Source: an uncultured Acidobacteriota bacterium
Lineage (GTDB): Bacteria; Acidobacteriota; Polarisedimenticolia; Polarisedimenticolales; DASRJG01
DNA length: 64,000 nt
NCBI GenBank assembly: GCA_964383585.1
Contig: CAYLHQ010000013.1
Span: 16,944-80,943 of the forward strand
Reading direction: 5' to 3'
In this document: in pieces, positions 3,504-57,382 of the stretch
How positions within the stretch are numbered: position 1 is the first letter of the stretch
How the letters are laid out: every line of letters begins with the position of its first letter
Notes under the pieces: model-generated
Database searches by the model: none
What the model was told of the DNA's origin: nothing
Seen by the model: the letters and a program-made list of their open reading frames with translations, nothing else
Made by a program: the position numbers and the translations under genes

Positions 3504-5003
3504 CTACCAGCGGAACGACGTCCTCGCCGCCGACTCCGCGAGGTCGGCGTGGAGAGCGGCCGCCGCCTCCCACGGAACGAACGGGACCGAGACCCGTGCC
3601 CCGCCGCCCGCGGCGGTGTCGACGGAGAGCCTCGCCGTCCCGTGCCTCCGGTCGAACGGGGTCCGGCGGAGCGAGACCGCCTGCACTTTCGCCTGCCGCG
3701 CGAGCGTGACGCGCCGCACCCACCACCCCGAGCGGGAAGCGACGGCGCGTGCGGTGCGCGCCCACGCGAGCCATCGGGCGTCGAGAATCGAGCGAAGGGC
3801 GTTCCACGCGAGGAGAGGGACGAGGACGGAGAGTCCCCACGGCCCGAACGCGTATCCCGCGAGCGACGTCCACACGAGGCCGAAGGGCAGCCGCCGGAGG
3901 AAGAGCCGTCGTGCCGCCTTCTCGTGGACGGCGTTCCACGAGATCCCCTCCGGGTCGAGGTCGGGGTGGACCTCGCGGAGGAGGGCCGCCGACTTCTCCC
4001 GCGGCCAGATCGGGGCGAGCCAAGGGGTCCGCGCGGTGCCGCGCCCCTCTTCGTCGCGGATCGCCCCGCCTGCCGTCTGGACCCTCAAGGAGACGCGCCC
4101 GAACAGGCGGTGGAGCGGCCCCTCGAGGATCGTGACGGTCTGGATGCGGTGGCGGGGGATCGTCGCGGAGACCCGGGTGAAGAGGCCGTGGGAAACGCGC
4201 AGGTCGTCTCCGCGCTCCTCCAGGGTGAAGCCGGCAAGCGTTGCCCAGGCGTGGAGGACCGAGAGGATCCGGATCAGGATCAGGACCCCGAGGATCGCGG
4301 CGGCGACGAGCGGCCACCCTCCCGCCGACTGGAAGGAGCCGATCCCCCGCACCACTCCTTCCGGATCGAACGGGGGTTCCGGTTTCCCCCGGTCGATCGT
4401 CAGTTGCCACCAGAGGCCGAGAGCCGCCGCGACCAAGACCATCCCGCGGTTCGCGGCGATTCCGTGGAGCGCGAGGTCGCCCCAGGAGAGGCGGGCCAAG
4501 ACACGCCCTTCGGGTTCCGGGGTGGGCTCCCTTTCCTCCTCCGCCCCCGGCTCGCGGCCGGCGAAGACCCTCCTCCGCATGTCCTCGACGGCGTCGACGG
4601 CGAGAACCCGGAAGACCGCCTCGACCTCCTCGCCGCTCGCGGTCTGCACCCGCACGTCCGCGACCCCGAAGGCCCGCTGGATCGGGTTCTGGACGAGGTC
4701 GATGCTCTGGATCCGCCGGTAGGGGATGTGGCGCTCGTTCGTGGAGATCAGTCCCTGCCGGACGACGAGCTCTTCCGCGTCGAAGCGGTAACGGAAGGTG
4801 AGGAACCGGAAGAGGGCCGTCAGGGCCGCCGGGATGAAGAGAATCGCGAAGAAGGCCTCGAAGCGGTCGCCGCGCGAGAAGACGAGGAACAGGAGGGCCG
4901 GAAGGAGGAGCCTCCACGCCGCCGAGCCCAGGGTGAAGAGGAGGGAGAGCGGGTGGAGGTGGCGGGAGTCTCCCGCGACGGAGGGAGGAGTCTCAGACGG
5001 CAT
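3504..5003 (-). CDS. YdbT-like membrane protein with repeated bacterial PH (bPH_2) domains
   Basis: Repeated modules of two TM helices followed by motifs such as RHIPYRRIQSIDLVQNPIQRAFGVADVRVQTA. It is paired with a YdbS-like gene upstream. Confidence 0.75.
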   Translation of the reverse strand: MPSETPPSVAGDSRHLHPLSLLFTLGSAAWRLLLPALLFLVFSRGDRFEAFFAILFIPAALTALFRFLTFRYRFDAEELVVRQGLISTNERHIPYRRIQSIDLVQNPIQRAFGVADVRVQTASGEEVEAVFRVLAVDAVEDMRRRVFAGREPGAEEEREPTPEPEGRVLARLSWGDLALHGIAANRGMVLVAAALGLWWQLTIDRGKPEPPFDPEGVVRGIGSFQSAGGWPLVAAAILGVLILIRILSVLHAWATLAGFTLEERGDDLRVSHGLFTRVSATIPRHRIQTVTILEGPLHRLFGRVSLRVQTAGGAIRDEEGRGTARTPWLAPIWPREKSAALLREVHPDLDPEGISWNAVHEKAARRLFLRRLPFGLVWTSLAGYAFGPWGLSVLVPLLAWNALRSILDARWLAWARTARAVASRSGWWVRRVTLARQAKVQAVSLRRTPFDRRHGTARLSVDTAAGGGARVSVPFVPWEAAAALHADLAESAARTSFRW

Positions 5004-7660: not shown

Positions 7661-8700
7661 GGGGTCAAGTCTCGTTTCGGGACATTCCTCTAATTCCTGA
7701 GCCCGGCGAGTCAGAGCCCACCGAACGCCCTTGTCTTTCCCCGGTGCGCTCTCCATCTTACGTGCAGGTCCCGGCCTCCCCCACGGAGCCACGATGGCTC
7801 GACCTCTTCGACTGGAAGCCCCCGGCCACTTCTTCCACGTGTTGGCGCGCGGGAACGCCAAGCACCCCATCTTCCTCGACGACCGGGATCGAGAGCGTTT
7901 TTTGGACACCCTCGGCGAAGCCGTGTTCCGCTTCGAGGTGAGATGCCACGCCTACTGCCTCATGGCGAACCACTACCACCTCCTGCTTCAGCCGATGCGG
8001 GAAACCCTGTCGCGCGCGGTGCGCCACTTGAACGGCGTGTACTCGCAGCGGTTCAATCGGAGGCATGAGCGCGTGGGGCATGTGTTCGCGGGACGATTCA
8101 AAAGCCCTCTCGTGGACCGAGAGCATTACCTTCTGGCGCTCTGCCGTTACATCGCGCTCAATCCGGTCCGATCGGGTGCGGTCCGCGAGCCCGCGGACTG
8201 GAAATGGAGCGGTCACCGTGCCCTGGTGGGGATGGATACCGCTCCGGACTGGTTGACCGTGGATGAGGTGCTGCAGGCGTTCGATCCGCGCGGCGACGGT
8301 TTCGCTCGGCATGCCTACGCTCGTTTCGTCGAAGAGGGAATCCGCCCCGACCGCGCGTCGGAGTTCGCCGAGCTCGATCGAGCTGCGGATCTCGGCGGCA
8401 TCCTGGGGCGCTCGGAGTTTATCGCAGGTTTTTCCCGGAGACTCGATCGCTCACGACGCAATCGCGAGCATTCGAAGCGCGAGCGATTCGCGGACCGCCC
8501 CCCGCTCGAGCGGATTCTCGAGGCGAGCGAGTGCGCCGGCCTCGTCGGCCGCATCGAAGCGGCACGGTGCGACCACGGGTATTCGCTGGACGAGATCGGT
8601 CGCGTACTCGGCATTGATCGGAGAACGGTGGTTCGCCTCGTTCGAGCGTCGAAGGTCGAAGGAAGAATTGTCGAAATGTCCCACTTCAAGACTTGACCCC
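7661..8700 (+). mobile_element. RAYT / IS200-like unit bounded by 37-nt imperfect inverted repeats
   Basis: Left 7661-7697 is GGGGTCAAGTCTCGTTTCGGGACATTCCTCTAATTCC. The reverse complement of 8664-8700 is GGGGTCAAGTCTTGAAGTGGGACATTTCGACAATTCT. 25/37 positions are identical, in three blocks. The unit encloses the Y1 transposase gene. Confidence 0.7.
7794..8696 (+). CDS. REP-associated tyrosine transposase (RAYT) / IS200-like Y1 HUH transposase with C-terminal DnaA-C-like HTH
   Basis: HUH motif in CLMANHYHLLLQP. Catalytic Tyr motif LCRYIALNPVRSG. C-terminal GYSLDEIGRVLGIDRRTVVRLV. Noticeably more A/T-ending codons than the neighbouring genes. Confidence 0.85.
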   Translation: MARPLRLEAPGHFFHVLARGNAKHPIFLDDRDRERFLDTLGEAVFRFEVRCHAYCLMANHYHLLLQPMRETLSRAVRHLNGVYSQRFNRRHERVGHVFAGRFKSPLVDREHYLLALCRYIALNPVRSGAVREPADWKWSGHRALVGMDTAPDWLTVDEVLQAFDPRGDGFARHAYARFVEEGIRPDRASEFAELDRAADLGGILGRSEFIAGFSRRLDRSRRNREHSKRERFADRPPLERILEASECAGLVGRIEAARCDHGYSLDEIGRVLGIDRRTVVRLVRASKVEGRIVEMSHFKT

Positions 8701-8749: not shown

Positions 8750-10408
8750 ATGATTCGTTCGCATTCGGCCGTCCTGGCCCTCGCTCTGACCCTTTCCTGC
8801 GCGGGCCCCGCGGCGCCGCCGCCCGCGGAATCCCGGCCCGAGATCCCGCTCTACGAGGGGCTCGGCCCCCACGTCCGCAAGGTGACGACAGAATCCCCAA
8901 AGGCCCAACGGTACTTCGATCAGGGGCTGAACTTCCTCTATGGCTTCGACCACGACGAGGCGATCCGCGCCTTCAAGAAGGCCGCGGAGATCGATCCGTC
9001 GTGCGCGATGGCCCACTGGGGCGTCGCCTACGCGAACGGGCCCCACATCAACAACGCGGTCGTCCCCGAGTCGCGCGAGAAGGCCGCCTACGAGGCGGTC
9101 GCCGTCGCGCGGCAGCATCTCGACGGGGCGACGGCAATTGAGGAGGCCCTCGTGGAGGCGCTCGCCGCCCGCTACGCCTGGCCGCAGCCGGAGGACCGGG
9201 GGCCGCTCGACCGGGCGTTCGCCGAGGCGATGAAAGGGGTGTGGGCCGCCCACCCGGACGACCCCGACGTCGGCGCACTCTATGCCGAGGCGCTCATGGA
9301 TCTCCACCCGTGGGACCTGTGGAACCACGACGGCACGCCGAAGGAGTGGACGCCGCCGATCGTGGCGCTCCTCGAGGAGGTCCTCGCGAAGGCGCCCGCG
9401 CATCCGCTCGCGCTCCACCTTTACATCCACGCCGTCGAGGCGTCTTCCGCGCCGGGACGGGCCGACGTCGCCGCCGACAGCCTTCGCGACCTGATGCCCG
9501 GCCTCGGCCACATGGTCCACATGCCGTCGCACATCGACGTCCGCCGCGGCCGCTGGGAGGAGGCGATCGTCGCGAACACGAAGGCGATGGCGGCGGACCA
9601 CGCCTACCAGGAGAAGTCCCCCCAGCAGGATTTCTACCGCCTCTACATGGCGCACAACCACCACATGCGCGCCTTCGCCGCGATGATGGTGGGGAAGAGC
9701 GCCCTTGCCCTCGACTCGGTCCGCGAGATGGTCGCCGAGATGCCGGAGGACTGGCTCCGGGAGAACGCCCTGTGGGCCGACGGCTGGGTCGCGATGCCGA
9801 TCGAGGTCCTCATGCGCTTCGGGCGGTGGGAGGAGATCCTCGCGGAGCCGGAGCCGCCCGTGTACCTGCCGCACTCCCGCGCCCTCCGTCATTACGCGCG
9901 CGGGGTCGCGTACGCCGCGACGGACAGGGTCGTCGAGGCGCGCGCGGAGCAGGAGTTGTTTGTCGAGGCGCGCACGAAGGTGTCTCCCGACGCGACGTTC
10001 GGGAACAACAAGTCCTCGGACATCCTCGGGGTTGCCGAGGCTCTCCTCGAAGGGGAGATCCTCTACCGGGCGGGGGAGCAGGAGAAGGGGTTCGCCGTTC
10101 TGCGCGAGGCCGTGAAACGCGAAGACGCCCTCCGCTACGACGAGCCGCCCGACTGGATCCAGCCGGTTCGGCATCCCCTCGGAGCGGCGCTCCTCCAGTC
10201 GGGCCGGTACGAGGAGGCGGAGCAGGTGTTCCGCGAGGATCTCGCGAGACTTCCCGGAAACGGCTGGTCGCTCTTCGGCACGGGCCGCGCGCTGCGTCTC
10301 CAGGGGAAAGGAGCCGAAGCGGTGGTGTACGAGGCACAGTTCACCGACGCGTGGAAAGAGGCGGACGTGAAGATCGCCTCCCCGTGCTTCTGTCAAAGAG
10401 GGGTATAG
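8750..10408 (+). CDS. TPR-repeat lipoprotein
   Basis: GAGAGGAGG Shine-Dalgarno before ATG 8750. Lipobox LTLSC. TPR-like helices (YFDQGLNFLYGFDHDEAIRAFKKAAEIDP). Confidence 0.7.
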   Translation: MIRSHSAVLALALTLSCAGPAAPPPAESRPEIPLYEGLGPHVRKVTTESPKAQRYFDQGLNFLYGFDHDEAIRAFKKAAEIDPSCAMAHWGVAYANGPHINNAVVPESREKAAYEAVAVARQHLDGATAIEEALVEALAARYAWPQPEDRGPLDRAFAEAMKGVWAAHPDDPDVGALYAEALMDLHPWDLWNHDGTPKEWTPPIVALLEEVLAKAPAHPLALHLYIHAVEASSAPGRADVAADSLRDLMPGLGHMVHMPSHIDVRRGRWEEAIVANTKAMAADHAYQEKSPQQDFYRLYMAHNHHMRAFAAMMVGKSALALDSVREMVAEMPEDWLRENALWADGWVAMPIEVLMRFGRWEEILAEPEPPVYLPHSRALRHYARGVAYAATDRVVEARAEQELFVEARTKVSPDATFGNNKSSDILGVAEALLEGEILYRAGEQEKGFAVLREAVKREDALRYDEPPDWIQPVRHPLGAALLQSGRYEEAEQVFREDLARLPGNGWSLFGTGRALRLQGKGAEAVVYEAQFTDAWKEADVKIASPCFCQRGV

Positions 10409-10537
10409 GGGACATTCCGCTTTTAGAAAAAGTAGAAAAAGGGGACAGGCAACTTTTCCCAGCCGCCCGGGTTGCGGTACTTCCCGGGCGGCTGAGAAAA
10501 GGTGCCTGTCCCCTTTTTCTAAAAGCGGAATGTCCCC
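10408..10537. repeat. 130-bp AT-rich nested palindromic element (REP/MITE-like), termini GGGGACATTCCGCTTTTA
   Basis: Paired segments of 24+13+7+11 bp with 2 mismatches, a 9-nt bulge (duplicated TAGAAAAAG) and an 11-nt loop. It spans exactly from the G of the upstream TAG stop to the C of the downstream CTA (minus-strand TAG). Confidence 0.9.
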
Positions 10538-15769: not shown

Positions 15770-15787
15770 TTATCGAGGAATGTCCCC
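15751..15787 (-). repeat. AT-rich junction element related to the RAYT left end (GGGGACATTCCTC...ATTCCTCA)
   Basis: The minus strand reads GGGGACATTCCTCGATAAATGAAAATTCCTCAATCCCC. Compare the RAYT left flank GGGACATTCCTCTAATTCCTGA. It supplies the last 5 codons and TAA of one gene and the ATG plus 6 codons of the next. Confidence 0.65.
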
Positions 15788-20222: not shown

Positions 20223-20261
20223 CCGTCACCTCGCGGGGCCGAATACGGCCGGATGGTACAT

Positions 20262-20295
20262 CTGTCCAAAAGTTGTCGCAAGTCTGTCCAAGACA
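20262..20295. promoter_or_regulatory. candidate operator in the divergent carotenoid/HDAC promoter: CTGTCCAA direct repeat, 22-bp period
   Basis: CTGTCCAA occurs at 20262-20269 and 20284-20291. The second copy is part of the palindrome TGTCCAAGACA. The site lies in the lower-GC intergenic region between divergent genes. Confidence 0.3.
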
Positions 20296-20339
20296 TTTTT
20301 CGCGGCCTGTGAAATCATGTGGGGCGGAGCGATCGGCGC

Positions 20340-38188: not shown

Positions 38189-38719
38189 ATGCGACTTCGT
38201 ACATGGGCTCTCGCGGCATTCGGTTTCGGCGCCGCCTTCGCCGCCGACGGGGCGGGGGGGGCGGCCGGGAAGGTGCAGGCCCCGTCGTTCGAGCTCCGAG
38301 GCTCGGACGGCGCGATCCACCGGCTATCCGACCACGCCGGCAAGCGTGCGGTCGTCCTCGCCTGGTTTCCGAAAGCGTTCACCGGCGGTTGCACGGCCGA
38401 ATGCAAGTCGCTCCGTGAGAGCGGCGCCGCGATCCGTGAGTTCGAGGTTGCCCTGTACGCGGCAAGTTGTGACGACGCGGAAACGAACCGGAAATTCGCC
38501 GCGTCGCTCGATCTCGACTACCCGATCCTCAGCGATCCCGGCTGCGCGATTGCCCGCGCCTACGGGGTGGCGACGGAGGGGTCGAGCTACGCCCAGCGCG
38601 TCACCTTCTACATCGGCCCGGACGGGACGATTCTCGACGTCGACCGGTCCGTGAAAGCCTCGACTGCCGGAAACGACATCGCCGAACGCCTCACTGCCCT
38701 GGAGGTCAAGAGGAAATAG
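38189..38719 (+). CDS. secreted peroxiredoxin (Bcp/AhpC-TSA family)
   Basis: Signal peptide, then WFPKAFTGGCTAEC peroxidatic Cys motif. Confidence 0.85.
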   Translation: MRLRTWALAAFGFGAAFAADGAGGAAGKVQAPSFELRGSDGAIHRLSDHAGKRAVVLAWFPKAFTGGCTAECKSLRESGAAIREFEVALYAASCDDAETNRKFAASLDLDYPILSDPGCAIARAYGVATEGSSYAQRVTFYIGPDGTILDVDRSVKASTAGNDIAERLTALEVKRK

Positions 38720-38871
38720 GGGACATTCCGCTTTTACTTCTAAAGGTTGAATAGAAAAAGCGGGAGCGAAAAAGGGACTGGCACCTTTTCCGGTCTCCGG
38801 AAAAGGTGCCAGTCCCTTTTTCGCTCCCGCTTTTTCTATTCAACCTTTAGAAGTAAAAGCGGAATGTCCCC
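38719..38871. repeat. 153-bp perfect palindromic AT-rich element (75-bp arms, 3-nt loop), termini GGGGACATTCCGCTTTTA
   Basis: Base-by-base pairing was checked from 38719/38871 inward to 38793/38797 with no mismatch. It fills the gap between convergent genes, starting with the G of the TAG stop. Confidence 0.93.
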
Positions 38872-38872
38872 A

Positions 38873-41050
38873 TCACGGACACGGGTTCGGTCGAGGGGTG
38901 CCCGAGCTGTCGTTCCCCAACGGACCCGCTCCGCCGCATCCCGCATCCCGTCCGCCGATCAGGTACCAGTACCCTTCGTCGGTGGCTGGGGTCTCCGGTT
39001 CGTCGAACTCGGTTCCCGCGAGCCCCAGGACGAGGCAGCTTCCGTCCGTGGAACCGAGATTGCCGCGGACCACGTCATAACTGTCGGCACGCAAGGCCGC
39101 GGACCACGTGAGCCGCGTGGGCGTCGAGCCGTCGAGCATGAGGTTCGTGACCTCGCCCGGCGCACCGGCGGAGGGATCCAGGGGCGCGCAGTCGGTCCCG
39201 TCGAGCAGCCCGTCGTTGTCGTCGTCGAGATCGCAGGCGTCCCCCGCGGTGTCGAGATCCGCGTCGCCCTGTGCGGGGTTCGGGGTCGCGAGACAGTTGT
39301 CGTTCCGGTCGGGGACCCCGTCCCCGTCGGAGTCGTTGAGGGGGACGAAGGTCTCGGTCGACTTGAGAATCCAGTCGTCCGCGTCGAAGAGGACGTCGAC
39401 GACCGGGAGCGAGCTCTCGAGGACGAAGTCCTGATCGCTTCCGTCGTTCCAGACGGTTCGCACGTCGGCGCCCGCGGAGGTGATCAGGGTCAAACGGACC
39501 GGCATGGTGAAGACGGGTTGGGACGACTGGGTCTGGCGAATCCGCACGTAGACCCGGAAGAGGCCGCCTCCCGCATCGGCCTGGCTCCAACCGACCTCAT
39601 ACGCCGGCTGTCCCTCTCCGTAGACCCATTCCGCGAAGAACCAGTCGAGGAGCGCACCGTGGACGGCCTCCATCGTGTTCCGGTACATCTGGGTGTCGCC
39701 GACGCCGTCCCGGTTCTGGACGTACCAATTCCTGAGGCCTTGAAAGAACGCTGCGTCGCCGACTACGCCGCGAAGCATGTGCTGCACCCACGCGCCCTTG
39801 TCGTAGACGGTCGCACCGAAGGTGTCCGGGTTGTCGTAGAGAGGGCCGCTGAAGCTCGCGCGCCAGAGCGAGTTCATGTACGCCTTGTAGCCGGAGAAGC
39901 CTTCCAGGTGTTCCTTCCAAAGCGCCTCGGAGTGCGTCGCGAACCCCTCGTTGAGCCAGATCTCCCGCCAATCACGCGGGCTGACGCTGTCCCCCCACCA
40001 CTGGTGGGCGAGTTCGTGCGCGACGACGTAATCGTAGCCGTGTCCGCCGTTGATCAGCGAATACCCGTACGAGGTGTTCGTGGTGTGCTCCATGGCCCCC
40101 GAGAATGGGAAGGCGCTCATTCCGTACTTGTCCTCGACGAACGGGTACTCTCCGAAGGTCTGCGCGTAGAAGGTGATCATCGCGGGAGTGACGTTGAAGG
40201 ACTCCTCCGCGTCGGCGAGGTCTTCCGGGTAGACGTAGTAATCGACCGGCATCGTCCCGCCCGAGAGGGTCGTGTAGGAGTCGGAAAAGGTCTCGTAGAC
40301 GGTCGCGGCTACCGAGACGAGGTAGGTCGTCAGCGGCCGCGTCGGTTTCCACCGAAACTGCTTGCGTTTCCGGGGGAGATCCGCGGTTCCGATCCGCCGG
40401 CCGTTTCCGGTCGCGATCCAGGTGTTCGGAACGGTCCACCACATCTCGACCTCGGCCTTGTCGTCGGGGCGGTCCTTGCAGGGCCACCACGAGCGCGCCC
40501 CTTCGGGCTCCGAGAGAGACCACGCCATCTGGCCCTGCCCCTGGCCGTAGAGGTACTTGTTCCAACCGAAGGAGCCGAGCCCCGTCGATTGGGGCGCCCC
40601 CGAGTACTCGACGACCACCTCGAAGGTCTCTCCCGCGGCGTACGCGCGGTCGAGGGTGATGTCGAGAAGGTCCCCGGGGCGCGCGAAAGCCCGGGCGGAA
40701 CCGTTCTGCGTCACGCGGCTCACGGTCATGTTCGAAAGGAGATCGAGAACCAGGTGCTGAAACCCCCCGACGAGGCTCCGCCCCGTCACCGTCACCTTGC
40801 CCGAGACCGTCCGGGCGGCGGGGTCGAACTCGAGGTCGAGGAAGTACCGGGTCACATCGACATCGTCCTGAGCGACCAGAATGGAGTTCTCCTCGAGCGT
40901 CTTCGGCGCCCCCATCCCCGAGAGGCGGACGTGGCTCTTCCGCAGGAGATCCCGCTCCTCCCGGGTCGGAACCGGCATCGACTCGGTTCGCCCGGGAAGC
41001 GGGACGAGCGCGATGGCGAAGGCGATGGCTGCGGCGGCGAGGTGTCTCAT
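38873..41050 (-). CDS. M1-family aminopeptidase with C-terminal thrombospondin-type-3-like calcium-binding repeats
   Basis: GAMEHTT exopeptidase motif. HELAHQWWGD...WLNEGFATH zinc site. C-terminal DSDGDGVPDRNDNC...DLDDDNDGLLDG. Confidence 0.9.
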   Translation of the reverse strand: MRHLAAAAIAFAIALVPLPGRTESMPVPTREERDLLRKSHVRLSGMGAPKTLEENSILVAQDDVDVTRYFLDLEFDPAARTVSGKVTVTGRSLVGGFQHLVLDLLSNMTVSRVTQNGSARAFARPGDLLDITLDRAYAAGETFEVVVEYSGAPQSTGLGSFGWNKYLYGQGQGQMAWSLSEPEGARSWWPCKDRPDDKAEVEMWWTVPNTWIATGNGRRIGTADLPRKRKQFRWKPTRPLTTYLVSVAATVYETFSDSYTTLSGGTMPVDYYVYPEDLADAEESFNVTPAMITFYAQTFGEYPFVEDKYGMSAFPFSGAMEHTTNTSYGYSLINGGHGYDYVVAHELAHQWWGDSVSPRDWREIWLNEGFATHSEALWKEHLEGFSGYKAYMNSLWRASFSGPLYDNPDTFGATVYDKGAWVQHMLRGVVGDAAFFQGLRNWYVQNRDGVGDTQMYRNTMEAVHGALLDWFFAEWVYGEGQPAYEVGWSQADAGGGLFRVYVRIRQTQSSQPVFTMPVRLTLITSAGADVRTVWNDGSDQDFVLESSLPVVDVLFDADDWILKSTETFVPLNDSDGDGVPDRNDNCLATPNPAQGDADLDTAGDACDLDDDNDGLLDGTDCAPLDPSAGAPGEVTNLMLDGSTPTRLTWSAALRADSYDVVRGNLGSTDGSCLVLGLAGTEFDEPETPATDEGYWYLIGGRDAGCGGAGPLGNDSSGTPRPNPCP

Positions 41051-57338: not shown

Positions 57339-57382
57339 GGGGACAGGTTACTTTTTTTGGGCTCAAAAAGTAACCTGTCCCC
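57339..57382. repeat. 44-bp perfect hairpin GGGGACAGGTTACTTTTT-loop-AAAAAGTAACCTGTCCCC, related to the inner module of the 10408 element
   Basis: 18-bp perfect stem with an 8-nt loop. Compare GGGGACAGGCAACTTTTCC inside 10408-10537. The loop contains the stop of the upstream small ORF. Confidence 0.85.

Follow-up and report, generated by a model that had tools for sequence, protein, structure and literature searches.

A 153-bp palindrome between convergent genes of an uncultured Acidobacteriota bacterium is probably a nested dimer of TIRYT-family terminal inverted repeats

We analysed a 64-kb stretch of DNA from an uncultured Acidobacteriota bacterium (contig CAYLHQ010000013.1; the whole stretch is referred to as the window), in which a 153-bp palindrome at 38719–38871 fills the gap between two convergent genes. 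The palindrome is probably a non-coding, REPIN-like nested dimer of terminal inverted repeats (TIRs) that belongs to the repeat family of the TIRYT transposases (TnpA-Y1 subclass 2.1), a family marked by the motif GGGGWSAS. Its outer layer consists of two type-1 TIRs, GGGGACATTCCGCTTTT, each followed by a 33-nt subterminal module, and its inner layer is a type-2 TIR hairpin, GGGACTGGCACCTTTTCC, framed by A5 and T5. The sequences of both layers bracket Y1 transposase genes elsewhere, and the window itself carries a TIRYT gene with a related flank. Members of the family lie preferentially at gene 3' ends and show no direct target duplications.

The two 75-nt arms of the palindrome (38719–38793 and 38797–38871) are complementary at 75/75 positions (100%) and enclose the loop TCT (38794–38796). 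The element is ~48% GC in a window of 69.6% GC, and as RNA it folds to −153.1 kcal/mol, compared with −55 ± 4.7 kcal/mol for shuffled sequences (z = −20.9). On the left, an AhpC/TSA peroxiredoxin gene (38189–38719, + strand; PF00578, E = 1.8e-28) ends in a TAG stop codon at 38717–38719, the G of which is the first base of the palindrome. On the right, the single base 38872 separates the palindrome from the stop codon of an M1 aminopeptidase gene (38873–41050, − strand) that is convergent with the peroxiredoxin gene. A sequence-only reading of the window had described a perfect 75 + 3 + 75 palindrome with a TCT loop, AT-rich in GC-rich surroundings and running from the G of the TAG to 1 nt short of the aminopeptidase stop; the pairing, the base composition and the coordinates of the open reading frames (ORFs) all agree with that description. 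A scan of the whole window against Rfam 15 gave no match at the gathering score.

Each arm is built of the same layers in the same order. Outermost is the 17-nt type-1 TIR GGGGACATTCCGCTTTT (38719–38735, + strand; inverted copy at 38855–38871, − strand), which is present in 4 copies in the window where 0.13 would be expected. The 33-nt module ACTTCTAAAGGTTGAATAGAAAAAGCGGGAGCG follows as a spacer (38736–38768, + strand; mirror image at 38822–38854), and then AAAAA and the type-2 sequence GGGACTGGCACCTTTTCCGG. The inner type-2 hairpin (38769–38821) thus consists of A5 (38769–38773), the stem GGGACTGGCACCTTTTCCGG, the TCT loop, the stem CCGGAAAAGGTGCCAGTCCC and T5 (38817–38821), and its stem, also written GGGAC(T/A)GGCACCTTTT, represents the second repeat type. 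In the predicted fold, the spacer pairs with 38728–38735 as an arm-internal sub-hairpin, CCGCTTTT/AAAAGCGG. The two sub-hairpins per arm that had been proposed from the sequence are present, though weak (DNA fold −12.4 and −12.9 kcal/mol; z = −2.5 and −3.7), and folding gives both of the alternatives suggested for the element as a whole, one long hairpin or a multi-hairpin "clover".

The centre of the palindrome has the form of a terminator on both strands. Positions 38774–38816 form 20 pairs, 13 of them G-C, with TTTTT next on both strands, and the 53-nt core (38769–38821) scored as terminator-like in both directions, with a predicted RNA fold of −45.8 kcal/mol (z = −11.5). There is therefore a stable stem-loop with a U-tract on both strands, downstream of two convergent genes. 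The two predicted terminated RNAs are the same except for the loop, each with a small hairpin and a ~28-bp terminator hairpin that includes the flanking GCGAAAAA/UUUUUCGC pairs. On this point the sequence-only reading was wrong: it had reported no U-tract on either strand, and the A5-stem-T5 core gives U-tracts on both. It had also set a recent dimer against a terminator, a contrast that fails because the centre has the canonical bidirectional A5-stem-T5 shape; the element is both a repeat dimer and terminator-shaped. As in bidirectional intrinsic terminators, the inner 53 nt present an A-tract, a GC-containing stem and a T-tract that read the same on both strands between two stop codons. Unlike in such terminators, the stem comes from a repeat family common to other genomes, and it is enclosed on either side by another 50 bp of pairing that are superfluous for termination.

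The link with transposases came from a scan for the 17-mer in one genome per GTDB species (596 Gb); counts for other genomes, here and below, are those among the matches listed, and the loci compared carry L numbers. Dozens of inverted 17-mer pairs, 4 to >200 nt apart, were found in metagenome-assembled genomes (MAGs) of Acidobacteriota (CAYGWQ, CALZKF, CAZVOE and Polarisedimenticola) and of Gammaproteobacteria (Steroidobacteraceae, Woeseiaceae and a 675-kb long-read contig of CAVOVT). Dispersed TIR copies number about 15–25 in CAYGWQ and about 10 in JAGOXN. Single 17-mer matches in Streptococcus, Treponema, Oscillospiraceae and others were discarded as noise, as they lie in coding sequence and ~70 are expected by chance in 596 Gb. 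Viral contigs gave four lone matches and no pair, and therefore no phage link.

In a CALZKF MAG (L102), inverted exact copies of the 17-mer enclose an 871-bp segment in which the only convincing gene encodes a 228-aa PF01797 protein (Y1/HUH, IS200-like), and the outer TIR of the palindrome is the exact TIR of this gene. The sequence-only reading had taken the palindrome for a member of a repeat family, and the analysis supports this over a hairpin private to the locus. Homologues of the L102 transposase were found at L125 (73%), at L123 in a Polarisedimenticola-like MAG (59%) and at L124 in Gammaproteobacteria (54%). At all four loci inverted GGGGACATT... repeats enclose the Y1 gene, and the distal part of the repeats co-varies on the two sides (CCGCTTTT, CTGCTTTT, GCACGTT and CCTGATTT). 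L102, L123 and L125 are syntenic (DUF1570, transposase, glycosyltransferase) and their genes are enclosed by single TIRs; L124 lies in a different gene neighbourhood and its gene is enclosed by whole hairpins.

The inner layer also recurs. The type-2 motif GGGGACAGGCACC flanks another PF01797 gene in a Polarisedimenticolaceae MAG (L037), with TTCGGGGACAGGCACC... on both sides, and a stand-alone type-2 A5-hairpin-T5 element, gaaaaaGGGGACTGGCACCTTTTCCTAGTCGGAAAAGATGCCAGTCCCCtttttc, at positions 17–59 of a CAZVOE locus (L049) is nearly the palindrome core. At L120 and L122 a transposase gene is bracketed by GGGGTCAGGTCT. Together with the transposase gene of the window, described below, the genes bracketed by TIRs with a GGGGWSAS-type motif are those of L120, L122, L037, L102, L123, L124 and L125. 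The match to GGGGWSAS is 8/8 for GGGGACAG and GGGGTCAG, and 7/8 for GGGGACAT, which forms the palindrome's own ends, and for GGGGTCAA. Since the 17-mer hairpins and a flanked 54% homologue of the L102 transposase are found in Gammaproteobacteria as well, sequence comparison suggests that the TIR/transposase system crossed phyla, unlike the mostly vertical picture for REPINs and RAYTs (REP-associated tyrosine transposases; REP, repetitive extragenic palindrome).

Genes of this kind were described by Di Nocera et al. (2013, PMC3733652) as RAYT-like genes with TIRs that share GGGGWSAS, not GTAG REPs, and were named TIRtrons/TIRYTs; their TIR families are moderately abundant and occur as singles, dimers and clusters, and there is a separate TIRYT group specific to Acidobacteria. 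In the classification of Quentin et al. (2018, PMC6006769) the TIRYTs correspond to TnpA-Y1 subclass 2.1, characterised by NH[YF]H, Y[IV]xLNP and a C-terminal HTH_23 or Bac_DnaA_C domain, and this subclass is listed as without REPs. The window encodes a RAYT-like/TIRYT Y1 (HUH) transposase of 300 aa (7794–8696, + strand; PF01797 E = 6e-11, HTH_23) whose motifs NHYH and YIALNP and C-terminal helix-turn-helix fit subclass 2.1 (Table 1 of PMC6006769). It is named RayT in the JGI annotation and scores 72.9 bits on NF047646, under the equivalog cut-off of 80. Three Y1 proteins, this one included, match the NCBIfam REP-associated tyrosine transposase model at E ~1e-20, below the equivalog cut-off, consistent with RAYT-like proteins outside the canonical RAYTs. 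A PDB sequence search with the window transposase gave no match.

The window transposase gene is flanked by inverted repeats of ~36 nt with the form GGGGTCAAGTCT-N6-GGGACATT(C/T)C.... The upstream copy (7661–7697, + strand) reads GGGGTCAAGTCT-N6-GGGACATTCCTCTAATTCC, and the downstream copy (8665–8700, − strand), GGGGTCAAGTCT-N6-GGGACATTTCGACAATTC, overlaps the 3' end of the gene and codes for the last residues of the protein. These flanks include GGGACATTCC and GGGACATTTC. The 10-mer GGGACATTCC has 7 occurrences in the window compared with about 0.1 expected from base composition, and its presence at the flanks of the RAYT-like gene upholds the earlier proposal that the palindrome termini share the core of the RAYT repeat. 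The upstream repeat is conserved in an 87%-identical relative (L118) and co-varies in relatives at 56% and 49%; all three keep the outer GGGGTCA(A/G)GTCT, and the inner part co-varies on both sides. In the window, as in the 87% and 56% relatives, the gene order is ThyX, transposase, TPR protein (with confirmation of the ThyX domain only for L118), and in the 49% relative, L122, it lies between NDK and an ABC-transporter gene. We also considered GGGGTCAAGTCT as the dispersed family and rejected it, as in the window it occurs only at the flanks of the transposase gene.

A sister composite element of 130 bp is located at 10408–10537. It has type-1 ends, a AGAAAAAG linker, a type-2 stem GGGGACAGGCAACTTTTCC, a GC-rich central hairpin and A5/T5, and it fills a convergent gap from stop to stop, both stop codons overlapping the terminal TA/GGGG. 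This element is imperfect, with 2 mismatches and a 9-nt asymmetry; its left arm contains a 9-nt tandem duplication, AGAAAAAGT, and its right arm does not. The 18 terminal bases of the palindrome, GGGGACATTCCGCTTTTA, are identical to both ends of this element, 28 kb away, as the sequence-only reading had noted for the termini. Dispersal within the window comprises these two composite dimers (10408 and 38719), one solo TIR and one variant hairpin. The solo TIR, GGGGACATTCCTC (15775–15787, − strand), has as its last 12 nt GGGACATTCCTC, which match the inner part of the transposase upstream repeat at 12/12 positions, and the variant is a 44-bp hairpin of the GGGGACA type, GGGGACAGGTTACTTTTT...AAAAAGTAACCTGTCCCC (57339–57382).

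To describe the family as a whole we compiled 50 GGGGAC-type hairpins of 25–247 bp from Acidobacteriota and Gammaproteobacteria MAGs, 38 of which have flanks sufficient to judge their position. Sixteen of the 38 are found within 60 nt of the stops of two convergent ORFs (each at least 120 aa), 18 adjoin one stop codon and 4 adjoin none. The distance from hairpin to stop is often 0–30 nt, and in several cases the TAG overlaps the first G. The flanks of about 60% of the family hairpins are A-rich on the 5' side and T-rich on the 3' side. No direct target duplication was seen at the palindrome, where the flanking bases are GAAATA and ATCACG, or across the 38 hairpins, whose flanks prolong the palindrome (AA..TT, TT..AA, AT..AT). 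Nested double pairs recur, for example at L066. The window element has the longest perfect arms in the census (75 bp), followed by arms of 42 bp (L080) and 23 bp (L085 and L089), and the outer stems of older-looking copies contain 1–3 uncompensated mismatches. CAYGWQ has multiple copies of a 69-bp version whose interior is conserved, and the spacer module of the palindrome is only partly similar to the arms of L011 (90% over arm positions 1–30).

Gammaproteobacterial hairpins with the 17-mer GGGGACATTCCGCTTTT (or GGGGACATTCC, with variant tails) are located at L012, L020, L026, L031, L039, L043, L048, L059, L062, L066, L076, L080, L081, L085, L088, L089, L094 and L124, and the Acidobacteriota hairpin loci compared fall within L004–L104.

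The palindrome resembles the described TIRtrons/TIRYTs in that Y1 genes are flanked by inverted GGGGWSAS-type repeats, in the NHYH, YIALNP and C-terminal HTH features of the protein, in the scattering of the repeats as singles, dimers and clusters, which is clear in other MAGs, and in the occurrence in Acidobacteria. It differs from them in nesting two TIR types in one perfect 153-bp hairpin and in an inner layer that has A5/T5 and the look of a bidirectional terminator; in addition, Quentin et al. give subclass 2.1 no REPs. A full-text literature search (text, not figures) for the exact sequences GGGGACATTCCGC and GGGGACAGGCACC returned unrelated primers only.

The comparison with REPINs is close as well. 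Two inverted units with a spacer fold as a hairpin, and the alternatives of a long hairpin or a clover are the same two folds given for REPINs by Bertels and Rainey (2011, PMC3116915, Fig. S11 legend). The unit sequences recur at the flanks of a Y1 transposase gene of the RAYT type that is present once and passed on vertically, and the elements are extragenic and without target duplication. In contrast to REPINs, the termini GGGGACATTCCGC have no GT[AG]G tag (GTAG or GTGG), the repeat unit is itself no strong palindrome and alone forms weak A/T stems only, interiors vary greatly between copies, and the arms are perfect over 75 nt where those of REPINs are typically imperfect. Lacking the GT[AG]G tag, the element falls outside the classical REPs, and it is labelled more precisely as a TIR repeat of the TIRYT/TIRtron type. 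Mosaics of more than one inverted repeat subtype at gene 3' ends are also known from E. coli as bacterial interspersed mosaic elements; these are tandem arrays of alternating Y and Z REPs that include linker motifs, not a nested and perfectly symmetrical hairpin.

Several observations weigh against a nested TIR dimer of this family. The gene with the exactly matching TIR belongs to a different MAG, and the outer repeat of the window TIRYT gene, GGGGTCAAGTCT, differs and is not dispersed. Neither the 75-nt arm nor the 33-nt spacer has a second copy in the window or in the 125 loci compared. Interiors are often unrelated between copies in one MAG, which whole-hairpin copying does not predict: in JAGOXN (Steroidobacteraceae; L085, L088, L089, L059, L066 and L080) the outer GGGGACATTCCGCTTTTCG stems are common to the copies and the interiors of 4–50 nt are unrelated and mostly palindromic. 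An empty-site allele was not found among the nearest relatives, which are 57–63% identical in the aminopeptidase and have another small gene at the position. Metagenome scans with the composite type-1...type-2 arm and with the extended arm shared with L011 gave 0 matches and did not return the source contig either, and are hence uninformative.

In a different origin, which we regard as unlikely, the GGGGACATT and GGGGACAGG hairpins would be built in place and not copied whole. TIRYTs would add paired ends around pre-existing terminator hairpins, insert hairpins at their apex, or extend them by hairpin-templated synthesis. This would account for the locus-unique palindromic interiors, the nested layers and the exceptionally long perfect arms. 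If it were true, a transposase lineage common to Acidobacteriota and Gammaproteobacteria would make or upgrade bidirectional terminators at gene ends.

A palindrome of this kind could also be a product of assembly, in which the symmetry, or the whole palindrome, arose from collapsed arms of an imperfect inverted repeat. The same junction was found in three data sets: JGI 3300043177, JGI 3300043267 and the Logan assembly of SRR12686701. In JGI 3300043177 the palindrome is whole within a 101-kb contig. In JGI 3300043267 it is split between two contigs, both of which extend past the loop, with an overlap of ~70 nt and the same loop orientation; in one of them (L106, about 3620–3625, corresponding to window 38817) the right arm reads CCCATTTT where the window has CCCTTTTT. 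This one asymmetric base is either a population variant that breaks the symmetry or an error close to the contig end. The Logan contigs end exactly 30 nt into each arm and agree over these outer 30 nt; a k=31 graph would stop in this way at an inverted repeat. Perfect pairing is thus recorded in one full-length assembly only.

Collapse of the arms is conceivable, as the two arms have canonical k-mers in common, so that bubble-popping could merge them, and all of the assemblies appear, judged from where their contigs break, to be of the short-read de Bruijn type. Two of the three assemblies break inside the element, and the Logan halts and the single asymmetric base in one JGI contig point the same way. 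We nevertheless consider an artefact decidedly unlikely. Each flank is a different gene, hence there is no contig-end foldback; the TCT orientation and both arms agree in the two JGI samples; and the same assembly kept the 10408 element imperfect, so palindromes were not symmetrised automatically. Because of the different flanking genes and the imperfect 10408 element, we take the palindrome to be real; the choice between 75/75 and 74/75 pairs hinges on spanning reads.

It is very unlikely that the element is an ordinary, locally evolved bidirectional intrinsic terminator unconnected to a mobile or transposase repeat family. The A5-stem-T5 core on both strands between convergent genes and the lack of another copy of the spacer module in the window and the 125 loci are what such a terminator would show. 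This explanation is largely refuted by the shared termini, since the outer 18 nt recur at both ends of the element 28 kb away. Inverted pairs of the 17-mer occur in >40 hairpins of other MAGs, also around Y1 genes, the inner stem recurs at L037 and L049, and the 50 nt of perfect pairing beyond the U-tract are not needed for termination.

The same junction in relatives speaks against a local terminator as well. The nearest aminopeptidase relatives (four examined) are 57–63% identical. They keep part of the surrounding gene order: L108 and L111, two of the four, also have the LOG and CLC genes, and EamA is upstream in L108 only. The gaps at the junction in these relatives are 2–52 nt long, GC-rich and without the repeat. 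The small convergent gene in the slot between aminopeptidase and LOG varies, with YbjQ, DUF190 or DUF190+CrcB (L108, L111 and L113) in place of the peroxiredoxin found here, and the junction is a variable spot in the family. A comparison with an empty site had been proposed in the sequence-only reading, and none of these relatives, with their different small genes, offers a clean one. The comparison is evidence, from sequence, that the ancestral junction lacked the element.

A conventional miniature inverted-repeat transposable element, a deletion derivative of an insertion sequence (IS) with a DDE transposase that is mobilised by cut and paste, would also have terminal inverted repeats, be small, AT-rich and intergenic, and vary in its interior between copies. 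We consider this extremely improbable: direct target-site duplications are absent at the element and family-wide, the flanks being palindromic extensions; the only genes found bracketed are of the Y1/HUH type (PF01797; L102, L123, L125, L124 and, with the type-2 variant, L037); and the bracketed genes are single and syntenic among acidobacterial relatives, unlike an active IS.

Hardly credible, finally, is a role as paired sites for a DNA-binding protein or as uptake-signal-like inverted pairs, which the short core GGGGACATT, set in inverted pairs at gene ends with A/T-rich flanks and conserved across phyla, might suggest, since half-sites 4 to >200 nt apart are unlike a fixed operator, Y1 gene bracketing with distal co-variation is the signature of transposase ends, and no competence genes or regulators are linked. 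The inverted pairs of the DNA uptake sequence of Neisseria and the uptake signal sequence of Haemophilus form terminators and offer an analogy only: they too are short conserved words in inverted pairs with variable loops downstream of genes, and they differ in that the word here is the end of a transposase-bracketing repeat, with no competence link.

If the palindrome is a nested TIR dimer of the TIRYT family, as we favour, a TIRYT may have created or mobilised the element through its single-stranded hairpin form, by analogy with the TnpA-REP of E. coli, which cleaves and rejoins REPs in vitro (as cited in PMC6006769). The nesting could have come about by insertion of a type-2 hairpin at the apex of a type-1 hairpin, or by the addition of paired TIRs around an existing hairpin. 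The perfect arms would reflect either a recent event or homogenisation of the arms. An origin in a recent head-to-head or foldback event is plausible given the arm mismatches of other family members, although neither the 75-nt arm nor its 33-nt spacer has a second copy in the window or the 125 loci. A length of 153 bp is generally hard for bacteria to maintain in a perfect palindrome, and in E. coli SbcCD acts on long perfect palindromes. That the 153-bp palindrome persists despite being of the kind that is an SbcCD substrate suggests, by analogy, that the element is young.

At the RNA level, the predicted fold indicates that the inner hairpin followed by U5 could terminate both convergent transcripts. 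Each mRNA would then have an identical 3' tail of ~105 nt, except for the loop, with the small hairpin preceding the ~28-bp terminator hairpin. A structure beginning 0–1 nt past each stop may, by analogy with REPs, impede terminating ribosomes or affect translation termination; REPs within 15 nt of a stop codon reportedly have such an effect on translation termination, in work of Liang, Rudd and Deutscher from 2015.

These results tie a striking 153-bp palindrome to a poorly studied branch of the RAYTs (TIRYT/subclass 2.1), for which, to our knowledge, almost no dispersed repeat families and no biochemistry have been documented. Two TIR types, each linked to a different transposase clade, can nest in one element, and the two-way terminator form of the inner layer is an instance of repeat DNA supplying a regulatory structure at convergent gene ends. 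The presence of the 17-mer in both phyla bears on the view that REPIN-RAYT inheritance is near-exclusively vertical. The findings extend a known class to uncultured lineages and do not overturn current understanding; what makes them of interest is mainly that the element has two layers, that its perfect arms are so long and that the 17-mer occurs across phyla.

Two further repeats were noted. A Planctomycetota contig (QWOS01000084; L009 and L023) carries two copies of a ~200-nt repeat ending in AAAAGCGGAATGTCCCCTTTTTT, and at L009 tblastn with the L102 Y1 transposase gave a match of 59 aa (42% identity, E = 5e-4) at 74–241, directly upstream of the repeat end. In the window, an AT-rich intergenic segment at 20255–20300 contains the direct repeat TCTGTCCAA(A/G)A, its copies 24 nt apart (CATCTGTCCAAAAGTTGTCGCAAGTCTGTCCAAGACA), a possible operator or promoter that is unrelated to the palindrome.

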